Of a stretch of DNA of 64,000 nucleotides, positions 1-11,526 are shown one piece after another. Location: positions 27,147 through 91,146 of the forward strand of contig JBBRLI010000013.1 of the NCBI GenBank assembly GCA_038231455.1. The letters are read 5' to 3'. A program made the position numbers and the translations under genes. Each line of letters opens with the position of its first letter. Position 1 is the stretch's first letter. This DNA is from Vulcanimicrobiales bacterium (GTDB taxonomy: Bacteria > Vulcanimicrobiota > Vulcanimicrobiia > Vulcanimicrobiales > Vulcanimicrobiaceae). Below the pieces are notes generated by a model that was given only the letters and a program-made list of their open reading frames with translations, was not told where the DNA came from and searched no databases.

Positions 1-1
1 G

Positions 2-454
2 AACAACCAGATCGTCGCGCGGACGAATCGGGCGGGATACGCGGTCGTCCCGGGGCTTGGGTCGTACCTTCCCAGTATCGTCGGCATTTCCGATGTGAAT
101 CTGCCTTTTGATGAGTTGGTCGGCGGCGATCAACGTATCGCGCCCGGTTTCAAGGGCGCGGGCATCGTTCGCTACGCCTCGCATCGCGAACACGGAATCG
201 TTGGATCGGCGCAGGTCCGTCGAACGGGCCGCGGCGAGCCGGCCGCGTACGGACAGATCGAATTGCGTTTGGGTAAGGTCATCCAGACCTCACCGACCGA
301 TGCCGACGGACGATTTTATTTCGAACATCTGGCAACCGGTGTGTACGAAGCAACGATCTCGGACACATACGGCGTGCGCTGCACCGCACAGGTGCGCATC
401 CCAGAGTTTTCGGGCGCGCAATTCTCACTGGGGACAGTCACATGCGTCGAGTAG
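2..454 (+). CDS. Chaperone-usher (Csu/archaic type) outer-membrane usher, C-terminal part; 5' end outside window
   Basis: Frame is open from the window edge (NNQIVARTNRAGYAVVPGLGSYLPSIVGISDVNLP...), with a second 'SPTDADGRFYFEHL' repeat and a terminal Cys pair typical of usher C-terminal domains; overlaps the pilin gene. Confidence 0.7.
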   Translation, partial: NNQIVARTNRAGYAVVPGLGSYLPSIVGISDVNLPFDELVGGDQRIAPGFKGAGIVRYASHREHGIVGSAQVRRTGRGEPAAYGQIELRLGKVIQTSPTDADGRFYFEHLATGVYEATISDTYGVRCTAQVRIPEFSGAQFSLGTVTCVE

Positions 455-909
455 CGCTCGCTCTCGCACTCATCTGCGTCTTGTGCCGGCCCGCGATCGC
501 CGGGCCGCTTAGCTGTTCTGAGACCGCTACAAGCGGCCTGATCTTTACGAACGCATATAACGTGTACGCTCTCACCACGTACAGTGTCACGGCGACGGTC
601 GGCGTGACTTGCAACAAAAATAACGTCCCTTATACGATATCGGCCAACGCCGGGATGCATAGTGTGGCGCTTCCGAATCGAGACTTGAAGTACGTCAGCG
701 GGGCGGACGTACTTCCCTACTTCCTCTACACCACTGCCGCGCACACGACGGTTTTTGGTGACGGAACCAACGGCACGGCAATCATCAACGCAAATAACCC
801 AAGTTCTGGTACGCAGTATACAACCAGCATCTACGGAACGCTGGCGGCGGGTGCCGACGTGACGGCCGGTAGTTATACGGATACGGTCACGCTGACCGTC
901 ACGTATTAA
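442..909 (+). CDS. Spore coat U (SCPU)/Csu-type fimbrial pilin subunit
   Basis: Signal peptide, two Cys, 'LPYFLYTTAAHTTVFGDGT' and C-terminal 'AGSYTDTVTLTVTY' typical of Csu pilins. Confidence 0.85.
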   Translation: MRRVALALALICVLCRPAIAGPLSCSETATSGLIFTNAYNVYALTTYSVTATVGVTCNKNNVPYTISANAGMHSVALPNRDLKYVSGADVLPYFLYTTAAHTTVFGDGTNGTAIINANNPSSGTQYTTSIYGTLAAGADVTAGSYTDTVTLTVTY

Positions 910-915
910 TATCGA

Positions 916-1182
916 CTAACGCTTTTTCGTGACTTCGACGGTTGCGTGGAGTTCGCTCTCGTGACCGTCGGCATCGATCACGACGTTCCAATGACCGTCG
1001 CCGGGTGCTGCAAGAACGACCGGACTCGTGCGCGCATGACCGCCGATGAACTGATATTGGGCTTTTGATTTGAACAGCTTGAAGTTTGCGTCATCCATCA
1101 AACGCACGTTGGCTTGATGATCGAGCGTCACCCGGATTGCATCGCCTTCGCGCAATTTAAAGTGATAGTGAAGAATCTGCAT
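916..1182 (-). CDS. DUF1883-family small protein
   Basis: 'VTLDHQANVRLMDDANF...GGHARTSPV...GHWNVVID' resembles DUF1883. Confidence 0.7.
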   Translation of the reverse strand: MQILHYHFKLREGDAIRVTLDHQANVRLMDDANFKLFKSKAQYQFIGGHARTSPVVLAAPGDGHWNVVIDADGHESELHATVEVTKKR

Positions 1183-1287
1183 TCGAACCTCAAGCCGATA
1201 TTAAATTTAGATTACCCCGAAACACGCTCGCTCACGCATCGGTATCTTGGGCGACAACCTCTCACCGGTTCAAGAAAGTAGCGCAAG

Positions 1288-1602
1288 ATGATCAATCTCA
1301 CGCGTGCGACGCTCGTCGCCTGCGGTGTCTTTACCATTGCCGTCTCGTCGGCGCTCCCGGCGGTCGCCTCGGATTCGGGAATCGTTTCGTTTCGCTGCGC
1401 CTCCGCTGATGCCGGGTGCAACGTCGAAATACGATTGGGCACCCTGGATAGCCCCGATCAGGCGGCCCCGTACGGCTCAAAACACATCGACAAAGACTCC
1501 ACCTGGGACGTCGATTCCGGCGGCCTCTACGTGTTTTACAAAGGCAAAGACGGCTCGTGGCAGCGCGTTGCCGGAAATCGCGATTCGAAAATCGACCTCT
1601 GA
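1288..1602 (+). CDS. Hypothetical secreted protein
   Basis: N-terminal signal-peptide-like hydrophobic stretch ending AVA; 104 aa. Confidence 0.55.
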   Translation: MINLTRATLVACGVFTIAVSSALPAVASDSGIVSFRCASADAGCNVEIRLGTLDSPDQAAPYGSKHIDKDSTWDVDSGGLYVFYKGKDGSWQRVAGNRDSKIDL

Positions 1603-1628
1603 TTTGTCGTGAAATGTGCGGGTCGCTC

Positions 1629-1658
1629 TTGACAGCGGCCTGCACATCCCGGTAGGCT
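1629..1658 (+). promoter_or_regulatory. Sigma70-type promoter for the aro leader (TTGACA-N18-TAGGCT)
   Basis: TTGACA 1629-1634 and TAGGCT 1653-1658, 7 nt before the leader ATG. Confidence 0.6.
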
Positions 1659-1665
1659 CAGCGTA

Positions 1666-1728
1666 ATGAACGCGAAGTGGTTTAGCTACTGGTATTTTAC
1701 GTCGCTCCAACGGATCGGCGCCGGTTAG
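1666..1728 (+). CDS. Aromatic amino acid leader peptide MNAKWFSYWYFTSLQRIGAG (20 aa)
   Basis: Six aromatic codons within seven consecutive positions (W F S Y W Y F), upstream of a terminator and DAHP synthase. Confidence 0.85.
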   Translation: MNAKWFSYWYFTSLQRIGAG

Positions 1729-1763
1729 CGTTTTCTCACTTCTTCGATAGCGATTTTGAGAAC

Positions 1764-1795
1764 AAAGCTGCCCGCCGATGCGGGCGGCTTTTTTT
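1764..1795 (+). terminator. Intrinsic attenuator terminator upstream of aroF
   Basis: aaagctgcccgc-cgat-gcgggcggc followed by T7. Confidence 0.85.
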
Positions 1796-1820
1796 ATTCC
1801 CCACAGAGGAGCCTCGACCG

Positions 1821-2660
1821 ATGATCGCCCCGTGCACGCCCTGGACCCCATCGCTCTTGCCGGCAAGCGCCGAGCAGTGGCCGCTCGTCGCGCGGCGCGG
1901 TAACGAATCGACGCTCGTGCACGTCGGTGATGCCGTCTTTGGGGCGGAGGATTTCGTCGTGATCGGCGGGCCGTGTTCGGTCGAATCGCCTGCGCAGATC
2001 GACGCTGCCGCGGCGGCCGTCGCGCGCTCCGGCGGCAAGCTGCTCCGTGGCGGCGCGTTCAAGCCGCGCACCAATCCGTACGCGTTCCAGGGGCTGGGTT
2101 GGGATGGGGTCGATCTGCTCGCGGCCGCCGGACGCCGTTACGGGCTACCGGTGGTGAGTGAAGTGATGTCGATCGACCAAGTCGATCGCATGGCAGAATC
2201 CATCGACGTGCTGCAAGTTGGGGCGCGCAATATGCAAAACTTCGATCTCTTACGTGCCGTCGGCCGTTCGCATCGACCGGTCTTACTCAAACGCGGCATG
2301 AGTGCGACGCTCGACGAACTGCTCTGCGCTGCAGAATACATCGTCAACGAAGGCAACAAGAATGTGATCTTGTGCGAGCGTGGGATTCGCACGTTCGAAA
2401 CCTCGACGCGCAATACGCTCGATCTCGGCGCAATCGTCGTGCTCCGCGAACGCACGCACTTGCCGATCATCGTCGATCCCTCGCACGCGGTAGGTGTACG
2501 GCGTTGGATTCCACCGCTCTGTCGCGCGGCGCAAGCCGTCGGCGCGCATGGCTTGATGATTGAAGTGCATCCCGAACCGTGCGAGGCGCTCTGCGACCGC
2601 GACCAAGCCCTCGACCTTGAGGACTTCGCCGCGGTCATGGCATCGCTTAAGCGGGGCTGA
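1821..2660 (+). CDS. aroF: 3-deoxy-7-phosphoheptulonate (DAHP) synthase, type I-beta, catalytic domain only
   Basis: [41 protein letters not shown] and EVHP motifs. Confidence 0.92.
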
Positions 2661-3963
2661 GCTCGCGGCGAAAGGATTCCGTCGCTGCGAAGGCTTGCGC
2701 GAGATCGGCGATGAGATCGTCCGCATCTTCGATGCCAACCGAGAGTCGTACGAGATCGGGCGTGACGCCGGCCTCGATTTGTTCGACGACCGTAAGCTGT
2801 TGGTGCGTCGTCGTCGATGGGTGGATCGCAAGCGACTTTGCATCGCCGACGTTCGCGAGCAGAGAGAACAGCTTGAGTGCATCGATGAACGCCTTGGCCG
2901 CGGCAGCGCCGCCTTTCACGCCGAACGTAAGGATCGCGCCCTGCCCTTTGGGCAAGTACTTCTTGGCAAGCGGATGAGCGCGATCACCTTCGAGTCCCGG
3001 ATACTGCACCCACACGACCTCGCCGCGGCCTTGTAAGAACGTTGCGACGCGCAGCGCGTTTGTCGAGTGGCGCTCGACGCGTAAGCCGAGCGTCTCGAGG
3101 CCCTGAAGAAGAAGCCAGCCGTTGAACGGTGAGAGCGAGGATCCCAAGTCTCGCAGCAACTGGACCCGTGCTTTGACGATGAATGCCATGTTCCCGAACG
3201 AGGCTACGTAGCGAACGCCATGATACGACGGATCGGGGTCGGTGAGTTCGGGGAATTTTCCCGATGCGGCCCAATCGAAGTTGCCGCCGTCGACGATGAC
3301 GCCGCCGATTGTCGTTCCGTGTCCGCCGATAAATTTCGTCGCCGAGTGGGTGACGACGTTTGCGCCGTGTTTGATCGGATTGCTCAGATACGGCGTCGCA
3401 AGCGTGTTATCGACGATGAGCGGGATCTTCGCTTCGTGGGCGATAGCGGCCACCGCTTCGATGTCGAGTACGTCGACTTTCGGATTGCCGATGGTCTCTG
3501 CAAAAATCGCCTTCGTATTGGGTTTGATCGCGTTTTTGAAATTCGCGAGCTTACCCGGGTCGACGAGCGTCACCTCGATGCCGAATTTTGGCAGCGTGTG
3601 GACGAAGGCGGAGTGCGTCCCGCCGTACAGCGATGCGGAGCTTACGATGTGATCGCCTGCGCGGGCGATGTTGAGAATCGCGAAGATGTTCGCCGCTTGT
3701 CCTGAGGCGACGGCAAGTGCACCAACGCCGCCTTCGAGGACGGCGAGCCGCTGTTCGAGCACGTCGTTTGTGGGGTTCATGATACGCGTGTAGATGTTGC
3801 CGAACTCTTGGAGTCCGAAGAGACGCTCCGCGTGCGCGGTATCATCGAAGGTGTAGGACGTCGTTTGATAGATTGGAACGGCCCGGGCCTTCGTCGTTGG
3901 GTCGCCGCTATGACCCGCGTGAATTGCTGCGGTATCGAACTTGTACGCGTGCTCGTCGGACAT
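2647..3963 (-). CDS. metY: O-acetylhomoserine aminocarboxypropyltransferase (sulfhydrylase)
   Basis: [32 protein letters not shown] (PLP lysine), [14 protein letters not shown]. Confidence 0.93.
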
Positions 3964-4001
3964 CGGTGTTCCTCGCTTGTGAGTGGCGAAAGATGGAGTG
4001 G

Positions 4002-4041
4002 AAAGAAGAAGCCCCGCAGCCGGTGTCCGGTGCGGGGCTTC
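4002..4041 (-). terminator. Intrinsic attenuator terminator upstream of metY
   Basis: Minus strand gaagccccgca...tgcggggcttc stem followed by ttcttt. Confidence 0.75.
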
Positions 4042-4066
4042 GTTTATTCGGTTGCTGCGGTTGCTG

Positions 4067-4144
4067 CTAGCCGACGAAAACCCGACACCGGTCCATAATG
4101 GTGGTGCTCGTGCAGGTCATCGTCGTCATCCAGGCGGCGTTCAT
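4067..4144 (-). CDS. Met/Thr/Cys-rich leader peptide [25 protein letters not shown] (25 aa)
   Basis: 4 Met, 6 Thr, 2 Cys, 1 Ile; its 3' part (4074-4091) is complementary to the terminator arm (4027-4043). Confidence 0.8.
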
Positions 4145-4150
4145 GTGAGC

Positions 4151-5242
4151 CTAGGAGTAACACGGGACGAGTCGCCCTGTCAAGGCATCGGTGAACGCGC
4201 GTGAGGAAAGCGAGGGTTCACCGGGGCCGACTAAATCCGCCGTACGGGCGCCGGCCGCGTAGGTGGCTCGAACGGCTTCCTCGATCGCGCGCGCGTTTGC
4301 CTCATCGCCGAGGCTGAAGCGCAAGAGCAGGGCGGCGGAGAGGATCGCTGCGGTGGGATTGGCGATCCCGAGGCCCGCGATATCGGGTGCCGTGCCGGCG
4401 ATCGGCTCGTAGAGGCCGAATTTGCCACCGGACGCGGCACGCGTGCCGACGCTCGCGCTCGGCGCCGTTCCGATCGATCCGCCAAGTGCTGCGGCCTCAT
4501 CGGAGAGAATGTCGCCGAACATATTTTCCATCACGAGCACATCGAAGCGGCCGGGGTCGCGCACCAACTGCATCGCGGCGTTATCGACGAGCAGATGATC
4601 GAAGGCCACATCCGGATAGTCGGCCGCAACGCGAATGGCCGTCTTACGCCACAGTTGCGAGTTGACCAAGACGTTCACTTTGTCGACGGAGGTCAACCGT
4701 TTGGAACGCGTTCGTGCAAGCTCGAATGCGAAGCGCACAACACGCTCGATATCGGGCGCACGGTAACTCATCGTCTCGCACGCACACTCGACTCCATCGA
4801 TCGTCTCGATCGTTTTCTCACCGAAGTACAGTCCGCCGGTCAGTTCGCGGACGATGATGAGGTCGAGCTGACTTGCCAGATCCGCGCGCAGCGGCGAGCG
4901 CGATTCGAGCCCGGCGAACATCGTCGCCGGGCGCACGTTTGCGTAGAGGTCGAAGTGTTTGCGTAAAGTGAGCAGCGCGTACTCGGGTCGCTGCTGCGGC
5001 GATGCGCCGTCGAACTGTGTGCCACCGACAGCACCGAAGAGAATTGCATCTGCCCGCTCGCAGCCCGCAAGCGTCGCATCCGGCAGTGAGGTTCCGTGCG
5101 CGGCAACCGCCGCGGCACCGACAGCAAATTCTTCAAAGGCGAGATCCGGCCGCACCAGCGCGAGCACGCGCTGCGCGCAGGCCGTGACTTCGGGACCGAT
5201 CCCATCTCCTGGGAGAACGGCGATCATCGCGCGTGCTGCCAC
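4151..5242 (-). CDS. leuB: 3-isopropylmalate dehydrogenase
   Basis: [43 protein letters not shown]; alternative ATG at 5227 overlaps the leuD stop. Confidence 0.93.
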
Positions 5243-5748
5243 GCGCGCACGGTATCGATTTTACTGGCAAGATACGGTAAGAATCCGCCGCCCAAGATGA
5301 ACTGCTTGCGCAGTTCGTCGAGTTCAAATGCGACCGGTGCTTCGTCATCCGCTTGTACGGTTTGCTTCGCGACGTCGATCGTGATCGAGCGCGCGCGGGC
5401 GAAACCCTCGATCATCGCATCCGGTACGACCACCGGCACGATTGCGTTCGTATACGCATTCTCAAGAAAAATGCGCGCAAAGCTCGACGCGATGACCGCG
5501 CGGAAGCCGCGAGCCGTGAGCGCCCACGCCGCATGCTCGCGCGAACTGCCGCAGCCGAAGTTTTCGCCGGCCACAACGATGTTCGCCCCGGGCGACTCCG
5601 CCAGGAGCTCGGCGCCGCCGGCCATGCCGGTGAAGAGATGTTCGCCCAAGCCCTCGGTATCGATGCCGGTGAGGTATCGTGCGGGGATGATTTGGTCGGT
5701 ATCGACGTTTGCCCGACGGAGCGGAAGCGGTTTGCCGGTCACGATCAT
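5224..5748 (-). CDS. leuD: 3-isopropylmalate dehydratase small subunit
   Basis: NVDTDQIIPARYL, NFGCGSSREHA; ATG at 5748 overlaps the leuC stop. Confidence 0.92.
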   Translation of the reverse strand: MIVTGKPLPLRRANVDTDQIIPARYLTGIDTEGLGEHLFTGMAGGAELLAESPGANIVVAGENFGCGSSREHAAWALTARGFRAVIASSFARIFLENAYTNAIVPVVVPDAMIEGFARARSITIDVAKQTVQADDEAPVAFELDELRKQFILGGGFLPYLASKIDTVRAWQHAR

Positions 5749-7082
5749 ACGAGTGCCTCTTCGCGAATGGGCGCGCCGATGTCGGCTGGCGATGCGATAC
5801 GACCGAGTAGCGCGCTTGCTGCTACGATCGCGGGTGATGCGAGATGGACGCGTCCGCCATCGCCCATCCGGCCTTGGAAATTGCGGTTCGATGAAGAGAT
5901 GCAACGCATCCCCGGAGCGAGTACGCCCATCGACATCCCCAAACACGGACCGCACGACGAGTGCGTCCAAAGCGCCCCCGCATCTTGAAAAATTTCGTGC
6001 AGACCTTCGCGTTCCGCAGCACGTTTGACGGCCTGCGATCCCGGCGTGATGATCGTCGGAATAACGACGTTCTTTCCACGCAGAACGCGCGCCGCTTCGC
6101 GCAAATCGCCGATGCGCGAATTGGTACAAGAGCCGATGAACGCTTGGTCGAGCACGATCTCGCTCATCTTATCGCCAACCCGCAAGTCCATATAGTCGAG
6201 TGAAGCTGCGGCGGCACCGACCGGGACGACGCCATCGATCGGTGCGTTCTCGCCGGGATTCGTCCCCCAGGTTACCAGCGGACGAACCGCGTTTCCATCG
6301 ATCGTGACGCTCGCCGCGTAGCGTGCGTCGCGATCGGCGCGTAAGAAAAGCCAGTCACTAGGAGCTTCTTGCGTTTTCTCAAGATAGGCCGCGGTCACGC
6401 CGTCGGCCGCAATAATTCCAGTCGTCGCCCCCGCCTCGATTGCCATATTGCAAAGCGTCATACGCTGCTCCATGTCGAGCGAGTCGATCGCCGAGCCCGT
6501 GTACTCCAAAACGTACCCCGTGCCGCCACGAAAACCGATCTCGGCGATCACGGCGAGCGCCAAGTCTTTCGCGCTAGCGGACGGGTGCAGTTCTCCCTTT
6601 ACCTCGACGCGCATAACTTTGGGTCGCTGTAAGATCAGACATCCCGCAAGCATCGCGCCCGCTTGCGCGGTGGTCCCGATGCCCAGCGCAAAGGCACCAA
6701 AAGCGCCGAGCGTACACGTGTGGCTATCTCCACAGCAAACCGTCGATCCGGGCGTGACGTAGCCGCGCTCGGGGACGATAACATGGCAGATTCCGCCCTC
6801 GCCGATATCGTAGAGCCGGATGCCCTGACGTTTTGCCCACGTGCGCAAGACCTGCGCTTGAATCGCCGTGGCCGTGTCTTTCGCGGGCGACACGTGATCG
6901 TTAACCGCAACGATACGGTCGCGGTCGTAGAGGCAGTCGCCATACTCTTTCTCGATCGCGATCGCGCCCTGGGGTGTGGTAATCTCGTGCGCGACGACGC
7001 GGTCCATGAAGACCAGCGCGTTGCCGCCGGGAAGTTCTTCGACGACATGCGCGTCCCAAATTTTATCGAAGAGCGAACGCAT
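5745..7082 (-). CDS. leuC: 3-isopropylmalate dehydratase large subunit
   Basis: LFDKIWDAHVV, HEITTPQ, CGDSHTCT, GSCTNSRI, CGPCLGM, SNRNFQGRMG; GGAGG upstream of ATG 7082. Confidence 0.93.
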   Translation of the reverse strand: MRSLFDKIWDAHVVEELPGGNALVFMDRVVAHEITTPQGAIAIEKEYGDCLYDRDRIVAVNDHVSPAKDTATAIQAQVLRTWAKRQGIRLYDIGEGGICHVIVPERGYVTPGSTVCCGDSHTCTLGAFGAFALGIGTTAQAGAMLAGCLILQRPKVMRVEVKGELHPSASAKDLALAVIAEIGFRGGTGYVLEYTGSAIDSLDMEQRMTLCNMAIEAGATTGIIAADGVTAAYLEKTQEAPSDWLFLRADRDARYAASVTIDGNAVRPLVTWGTNPGENAPIDGVVPVGAAAASLDYMDLRVGDKMSEIVLDQAFIGSCTNSRIGDLREAARVLRGKNVVIPTIITPGSQAVKRAAEREGLHEIFQDAGALWTHSSCGPCLGMSMGVLAPGMRCISSSNRNFQGRMGDGGRVHLASPAIVAASALLGRIASPADIGAPIREEALV

Positions 7083-11496: not shown

Positions 11497-11526
11497 TTTG
11501 TAGCACGCAACGCTGCAGAGTGTCAA
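11497..11526 (-). promoter_or_regulatory. Candidate promoter for the ilv leader (TTGACA-N18-TACAAA, extended TG)
   Basis: tgtcaa on + at 11521-11526; the -10-like element lies 8 nt before the leader ATG. Confidence 0.5.

Follow-up and report, generated by a model that had tools for sequence, protein, structure and literature searches.

An aromatic-codon leader and probable transcription attenuator upstream of a core-only type I-beta DAHP synthase gene in a Vulcanimicrobiales bacterium

The window, which is the whole 64,000-nucleotide stretch of Vulcanimicrobiales DNA that was analysed, carries near its start a DAHP synthase gene preceded on the same strand by a predicted promoter, a short open reading frame (ORF) and an intrinsic terminator. 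The features of this locus are as follows:

1629–1634, plus strand: perfect -35 hexamer TTGACA, read from the sequence
1653–1658, plus strand: candidate -10 hexamer TAGGCT, picked by eye, with an 18-nt spacer and its end 7 nt 5' of the leader ATG
1666–1728, plus strand: leader ORF of 20 codons plus a stop codon (ATG at 1666, TAG at 1726–1728)
1678–1698, plus strand: aromatic codon block (codons 5–11; 2 × Trp, 2 × Phe, 2 × Tyr, 1 × Ser), where the ribosome is proposed to stall
1685–1704, plus strand: region 1 (1685–1692 and 1700–1704), which pairs with region 2 in the predicted minimum-energy fold of the untranslated RNA
1714–1729, plus strand: region 2, the predicted 5' strand of the antiterminator (1714–1720, 1723–1725 and 1727–1729, from nascent folds), spanning the last leader codons and the stop codon
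1733–1762, plus strand: small internal hairpin enclosed by the antiterminator, from the fold
1764–1779, plus strand: region 3, the terminator 5' arm (1764–1775) and loop (1776–1779)
1780–1795, plus strand: region 4, the terminator 3' arm (1780–1791) and T-run (1789–1795)
1806–1811, plus strand: Shine-Dalgarno-like GAGGAG, picked by eye, 9 nt 5' of the DAHP synthase ATG
1821–2660, plus strand: type I-beta DAHP synthase, catalytic core only, 279 amino acids (NCBIfam NF006421)

The ORF and its seven-codon block with two Trp, two Phe and two Tyr codons had been pointed out in a first-pass annotation of the DNA, and both the peptide and the coordinates were confirmed. A census of ATG-started short ORFs (8 to 45 codons) in the six frames of the 3.71 Mb genome yielded 36,131 frames. 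Six aromatic residues within seven positions occur in just one of them, the ORF at 1666–1728, and ten ORFs reach five in seven. By way of baseline, aromatic codons account for 7.1 % of the long open frames of the genome. With six of seven codons aromatic and a DAHP synthase gene 3' of them, the block forms a cluster of codons for the end products of the pathway. The 20-residue leader peptide has no family match in Pfam and NCBIfam, and no Shine-Dalgarno sequence is found upstream of the ORF. Both Phe codons in the block are TTT, and across the twenty-two leaders analysed below this codon is used for 32/37 Phe residues, against 33 % TTT in the long open frames of the genome, whereas the Tyr codons of these leaders show no such bias (24 TAT, 35 TAC). 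The TTT preference may be for sensitivity or for RNA pairing.

The DAHP synthase matches NF006421 with 395.9 bits (cut-off 335), with residues 23–277 aligned to profile positions 72–327 of 338. Since the match begins only at position 72, the profile's N-terminal regulatory section has no counterpart in the enzyme, and Pfam analysis of the enzyme returned DAHP_synth_1 only. The allostery of type I-beta DAHP synthases is attributed, in the available part of PMC8408635, to modules added to the core barrel. As the enzyme in the window is core-only and the allosteric modules are absent, feedback inhibition is likely to be missing. A second DAHP synthase paralogue (contig C3, 76029–77159) has an N-terminal extension of ~90 residues which, on reading of the translation, resembles a regulatory domain, and its gene overlaps the stop codon of an AroH-type chorismate mutase gene, also named from its translation. 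Neither this paralogue nor the separate prephenate dehydratase gene of the genome is preceded by a leader. The paralogue suggests that the genome divides the task between one isozyme under allosteric control and another under attenuation. In many relatives the gene downstream of the leader encodes instead a fusion of ~590 residues that joins a prephenate dehydratase, an ACT domain and a DAHP synthase (PF00800, PF01842 and PF00793; L003–L010, L146, L152, L154, L159 and L163, with Pfam run on L005:589–2352). The literature search yielded no paper on this fusion. The window enzyme is closest to the C-terminal, DAHP synthase part of the fusions (65–68 %, versus ~55 % to other paralogues), so it seems that its genus has either shed the N-terminal half or never acquired it, yet kept the leader.

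The promoter of the leader lies in a narrow and recurrent geometry. The distance from TTGAC to the leader ATG is 36–39 nt in all fourteen related leaders that were aligned and at most 45 nt in 8/8 further leaders, and in the fourteen aligned relatives a TGn-TAnnnT-like element, identified by eye, ends 6–9 nt 5' of the ATG. A -10-like element at this distance would leave a 5' untranslated region of ~0–3 nt, so that the leader would be translated from near the 5' end of the transcript. On promoter geometry, the leader ATG in the window would lie at or near the mRNA 5' end. An automated promoter rule called no site at the leader promoter, because the -10 element is weak. An 11-bp inverted repeat (1616–1626 and 1635–1645) flanks the -35 hexamer and is retained in a same-genus relative through a compensating double change, as judged by eye; it could be a repressor operator or the end of the transcript of the upstream gene.

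Forty-one genomes of the same class were sampled, four of which are unpublished (G009, G020, G022 and G036) and enter only into genome-level tallies, their loci being unread. Among the first 30 related DAHP synthase loci, fourteen have an aromatic short ORF that starts with ATG and has a strong hairpin with a T-rich tail 3' of it; a further locus, L009, is cut by a contig end. An aromatic short ORF also occurs in 8/32 further regions upstream of DAHP synthase genes. A single rule (at least four aromatic residues in eight) finds such ORFs on the sense strand of 22/61 regions and on the antisense strand of 0/61; the sampled relatives are kin, so that these counts overstate independence. By published genome the leader is present in 22/37, made up of 15/22 in the family of the window, 5/5 in a second family and 2/10 in a third. 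No aromatic leader was found in the other 15/37 published genomes of this first sample, nor at the nearest named homologue, which lies in a Vulcanimicrobiota MAG and encodes the same fusion (L031). A phylum-level search was made with a sequence-only model (R1), and the thirty best loci were fetched. These include twenty ATG-started and one GTG-started aromatic leader before DAHP synthase, four aromatic leaders without a DAHP synthase gene in the fetched locus, and five leaders rich in other amino acids. The model also matches branched-chain and Cys-type leaders and bare terminators, so that the 58/151 genomes it tallies cannot be taken as the number with an aromatic leader. The phylum sample contributes thirteen genomes, bringing those with a leader before DAHP synthase to 35, all of which probably belong to the Vulcanimicrobiota/Eremiobacterota. 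The expectation of similar short ORFs upstream of homologous genes, raised in the first-pass annotation, was thus borne out in 35 genomes, but not in 15/37 of the first sample.

In one genus of the same family (L157 and L167, and probably L168 and L169), an aromatic leader and terminator precede genes other than DAHP synthase, which in L157 and L167 are read from their translations as genes for an AroH-type chorismate mutase and, after it, a prephenate-dehydrogenase-like protein. At L134 the leader stands before a chorismate mutase and DAHP synthase pair.

Detailed analysis of twenty-two leaders indicates which of their properties are kept. A strong hairpin with a T-run lies 3' of every leader (22/22). 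The end of the ORF and the terminator are about 35–45 nt apart. The peptides diverge outside the aromatic core, and the number and order of the aromatic residues vary, with Trp, Phe and Tyr all present in 17/22 leaders and counts of 0–3 Trp, 0–4 Phe and 0–5 Tyr. The presence of exactly two codons for each amino acid, pointed out in the first-pass annotation, is a feature of 2/22 leaders and no conserved design; even the same-genus relative, whose DAHP synthase is 96 % identical, lacks one Tyr and one Phe codon, two of the six aromatics.

The recurrence bears on the simplest alternative, in which the ORF is a chance occurrence and the hairpin is the plain terminator of the upstream gene (1288–1602). 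The latter gene is on the same strand and the terminator lies 160 nt 3' of it, as this explanation would have it, but a perfect -35 hexamer is situated between that gene and the ORF, and the layout recurs in relatives with different upstream genes and different forms of the downstream gene. This explanation, to which hardly any probability can be given, was ruled out by the uniqueness of the ORF among the 36,131 short ORFs, its recurrence in relatives and the empty antisense control (0/61).

A different role could be assigned to the peptide itself, as a functional small hydrophobic peptide or as a nascent chain which senses free aromatic amino acids rather than tRNA charging, after the manner of TnaC, whose nascent chain arrests the ribosome. 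A Tyr-Trp-Tyr-type core does recur in many of the leaders. However, the residues outside the aromatic core are not conserved, the aromatic residues vary in number and order, and induction at high amino-acid level would be of the wrong sign for a biosynthetic gene, so that we regard a functional or arresting peptide as extremely unlikely.

The intrinsic terminator (1764–1791) is situated between the leader ORF and the structural gene, and consists of twelve pairs, eight of them G-C, with a loop of four and a run of seven T, for a predicted energy of -21.6 kcal/mol. The fold of positions 1660–1800 has -51.2 kcal/mol (z = -3.0), with 1/200 shuffles equally stable. When the locus is folded without translation, region 1, which lies in and just 3' of the aromatic codons, pairs in the minimum-energy structure with 1716–1729, and the terminator is also formed. 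Positions 1714–1720, at the start of region 2, are the exact reverse complement of 1773–1779, of which 1773–1775 form the 3' end of the terminator 5' arm and 1776–1779 make up the loop, and this is the longest complementary stretch. The first-pass annotation had proposed these two segments as a candidate antiterminator; the complementarity is exact and pairing of this kind recurs at related loci (see below), but at the window locus it does not rise above chance. Pairing with the terminator 5' half at least as good as these 7 bp was obtained with 100/500 dinucleotide shuffles of the last 30 nt of the ORF and with 65/682 other 30-nt segments of the locus. The DNA is G+C-rich (61 %) and matches are common, and the 7-bp match alone therefore proves nothing.

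The folds were also constrained by the position of the ribosome. Region 2 begins 15 nt past the last aromatic codon, just beyond the footprint of a ribosome stalled there, and 6 nt 5' of the stop codon, within the footprint of a terminating ribosome. With a stalled-ribosome mask and the terminator 3' arm not yet made, region 2 is predicted to pair with 1773–1779, 1770–1772 and 1767–1769 (-24.3 kcal/mol), while with the ribosome masking the stop codon no pairing competes with the terminator (-21.6 kcal/mol), which can then fold. Partition functions were computed on the nascent RNA of the twenty-two leaders with such ribosome masks, and the readout was how probable it is, on average, for the terminator 5' arm to be engaged in pairs already. 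This probability averages 0.83 for a stall on the last aromatic codon and 0.80 for one on the first, as compared to 0.36 for a ribosome at the stop codon, 0.57 without a ribosome and 0.68 with region 2 shuffled. In these models the fold outcome is the same for stalls at the first and the last aromatic codon, and each of the six could therefore act as a trigger of the switch. The probability is higher with the ribosome stalled than with it at the stop in 22/22 loci and lies above the shuffle mean in 21/22, and in 9/22 loci no more than 5/100 region 2 shuffles reach the observed value. The contrast between the two ribosome positions, for which the first-pass annotation had suggested folds with the ribosome-covered region constrained, is present throughout, and is smallest at the window locus (0.79 stalled versus 0.60 at the stop), where 17/100 region 2 shuffles sequester the terminator arm equally well. 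The antiterminator of the window locus also forms in silico without a ribosome (0.79), which would make read-through the untranslated default, unlike in the trp attenuator.

In 19/22 loci the last 30 nt of the ORF (plus 6) can pair with the terminator apex over an uninterrupted stretch of at least 7 nt, which always takes in the terminator loop. It is made up of at least four unrelated sequence pairs, including AUCGGCG/CGCCGAU in the window and CCGGUGAGG/CCUCACCGG and GGAGCGG/CCGCUCC elsewhere, and these differing pairs point to helix-level compensation between subfamilies. A single region 2 change in the same-genus relative (A to G) converts an A-U pair to G-U. The duplex energy of region 2 with the terminator 5' half has a negative z in 13/14 loci (mean z = -1.2), the individual values being weak. 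Alignment with MAFFT and RNAalifold recovered the terminator only from nine sequences, and no pairs from twenty-two.

The structural data can also be read as an attenuator that binds a ligand or a protein, of the riboswitch, T-box-like or TRAP-like type, with the short ORF incidental, given that the region is more structured than its shuffles and that a GCGC box directly 3' of the stop codon is conserved. An Rfam scan of window positions 1–6000 with E values up to 10, however, placed no leader family (Trp_leader, Phe_leader, Thr_leader and others) at the locus, and the hits at the leader site were sub-threshold sRNA matches only. What relatives keep is the reading frame, the distance from the ATG to the promoter and the aromatic enrichment, while nucleotides and other residues vary, and the antisense strand again gave no such frame in 61 regions; a ligand- or protein-binding attenuator thus appears very unlikely. 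A leader that is translated and senses aromatic supply, but acts through Rho, mRNA stability or access to the DAHP synthase ribosome-binding site, would accommodate the statistical weakness of the antiterminator at the window locus and its appearance in silico without a ribosome. Against this stand the strong hairpin and T-run after every one of the twenty-two leaders, the complementarity of ORF end and terminator apex despite differing sequences, and the location of the DAHP synthase Shine-Dalgarno sequence (1806–1811) outside all predicted helices, and such a mode of action is considered unlikely.

The feature itself is real, and with good probability the core-only type I-beta DAHP synthase gene is controlled at this locus by a transcription attenuator of the ribosome-mediated (leader-peptide) kind. 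This reading is preferred because the ORF is unique genome-wide, the layout is conserved in 35 genomes and the ribosome-masked folds fit, the same three lines that uphold the translated leader with terminator/antiterminator switch put forward in the first-pass annotation. It is further favoured by two more units of the same build in the window and by a published mixed aromatic leader before DAHP synthase, the aroR of Corynebacterium glutamicum. In the proposed mechanism, transcription from the TTGACA promoter would start at or a few bases from the leader ATG and lead to leaderless translation. With ample charged tRNA-Trp, tRNA-Phe and tRNA-Tyr, the ribosome would reach the TAG codon and cover region 2 (1714–1729), allowing the terminator (1764–1795) to form and transcription to end. 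A stall on any of the six aromatic codons (1678–1698) would instead cover region 1 and expose region 2, 15 nt downstream, which could then pair with the terminator loop and the upper part of the 5' arm as they emerge. The terminator would thereby be blocked and RNA polymerase would continue into the DAHP synthase gene. What the analysis shows directly are the sequence features, their conservation and their agreement with this folding scheme; where transcription starts, that the leader is translated and how the switch responds to Trp, Phe and Tyr individually are inferred.

Two further leader units occur on the minus strand of the window. The first comprises a 25-codon ORF rich in Met, Thr and Cys (4144–4067) with TTGACA at 4185–4180, a strong terminator (~4040–4001) and the O-acetylhomoserine sulfhydrylase gene metY (3963–2647); its fold has z = -3.7, and Rfam Thr_leader matches it weakly, with 20.7 bits against a gathering score of 55. 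The other, which surfaced as an R1 match with 30.6 bits, has a 26-codon ORF rich in Leu, Val and Ile (11488–11408), TTGACA at 11526–11521 and a terminator (11384–11347), followed by ilvC (11340–10264) and the acetolactate synthase large subunit gene ilvB (10263–8584). Elsewhere in the genome, a Cys/Met-rich ORF of 19 codons on the minus strand of contig C1 of G000 (start 450818) has the same promoter spacing and a terminator of -23.6 kcal/mol, and precedes a gene whose product begins like a secreted solute-binding protein. Similar Cys-rich leaders are the best model matches in a further four of the phylum's genomes (L165, L166, L170 and L171). A strict genome scan for promoter, ATG, short ORF and terminator retrieved two units only, the aromatic leader and the Cys-rich unit; as it missed the metY and ilvC leaders, it undercounts.

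Aromatic leaders also occur beyond the phylum. Using a rule of at least five aromatic residues in eight, followed by a terminator-like hairpin, 26/78 usable type I-beta DAHP synthase loci from other phyla contain such an arrangement, as compared to 1/78 in antisense. By record title the carriers include Clostridia, Acidobacteriota, Geobacter and other delta-type lineages, and Anaerolineales. At gathering score, Rfam found no leader family at twenty of these aromatic-leader loci. The literature search, which covered sources other than subscription papers and supplements, so that a prior description is possible, retrieved no description of a leader with Trp, Phe and Tyr codons before DAHP synthase, nor, within the same limits, of an aromatic leader or attenuation in the Eremiobacterota/Vulcanimicrobiota.

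A wider proposal can be advanced tentatively, with somewhat less than an even chance for the combination as a whole. According to this, the leader would be a true three-input sensor, opened by starvation for any one of Trp, Phe and Tyr, and part of a large, multi-phylum family of type I-beta DAHP synthase leaders which is undescribed in the literature searched or in Rfam. It would also be one arm of a general system of leaderless leaders serving aromatic, branched-chain, Met/Thr and Cys genes, and would provide the sole feedback on an isozyme that is without any allosteric domain.

The leader in the window is one instance of a widespread and poorly catalogued family, and an ordinary but well-conserved type of switch, and the general understanding of attenuation is unchanged by it. 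Its significance lies in the indication that attenuation from apparently leaderless mRNAs serves several amino-acid pathways in this lineage, and in the flagging of unannotated short ORFs which gene callers and Rfam overlook. Together with the count of 26/78 in other phyla, it points to aromatic leaders as a common feature ahead of type I-beta DAHP synthase genes, and one that merits a curated RNA family.

Among known systems, the aroR-aroF locus of C. glutamicum, whose enzyme belongs to a different DAHP synthase subclass, likewise has a mixed aromatic short leader directly upstream of the DAHP synthase gene. As described by Neshat et al. (2014), in the account given by the review PMC11802643 and the available part of PMC4046766, the aroR leader ORF has a Phe-Tyr-Phe control block and ribosome stalling raises transcription. 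According to the same review, transcription was raised by Phe limitation, while Tyr availability was without effect. A mixed leader therefore need not read all of its codon classes, and the OR-gate logic for Trp, Phe and Tyr at the window leader remains at the level of a proposal drawn from its codons. The two leaders, compared here by description, differ in that aroR is actinobacterial and contains Phe-Tyr-Phe and no Trp. A promoter, short ORF and intrinsic terminator before a DAHP synthase gene are also combined in the uORFC-13-1 motif upstream of Acholeplasma aroF, for which sensing of ribosome speed has been proposed (Brewer et al. 2021; available part of PMC8632094). In that motif, as set out there, a ribosome-binding site is present and the U run encodes nothing but Phe; its occurrence is confined to one Mollicutes genus and environmental sequences. 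Sensor ORFs that start at the mRNA 5' end, as the promoter geometry would suggest for the window leader, are represented by the leaderless polycysteine short ORFs of mycobacteria (bioRxiv 10.1101/834739) and by the C. glutamicum ilvB leader, which is made without a ribosome-binding site (in PMC4046766); these, however, read Cys or Val and are actinobacterial. For genes of Phe or Tyr, the available part of an actinobacterial survey lists no RNA element (PMC1262725).

The classical enterobacterial trpL and pheL leaders share the four-region logic: region 1 holds the control codons, region 2 lies close to the stop codon, and the terminator is made of regions 3 and 4. They respond to one amino acid, start from a Shine-Dalgarno sequence and control terminal-branch operons, whereas the window leader stands before the entry step of the pathway. 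The first-pass annotation contrasted the locus with such single-amino-acid leaders alone, and thereby overlooked the leaders of the thr and ilv operons, in which control codons for more than one amino acid are combined in one leader, as they are here. The thr and ilv leaders serve other pathways, whereas the codons in the window leader correspond to the three end products of one branched pathway, and its target is the first common enzyme.
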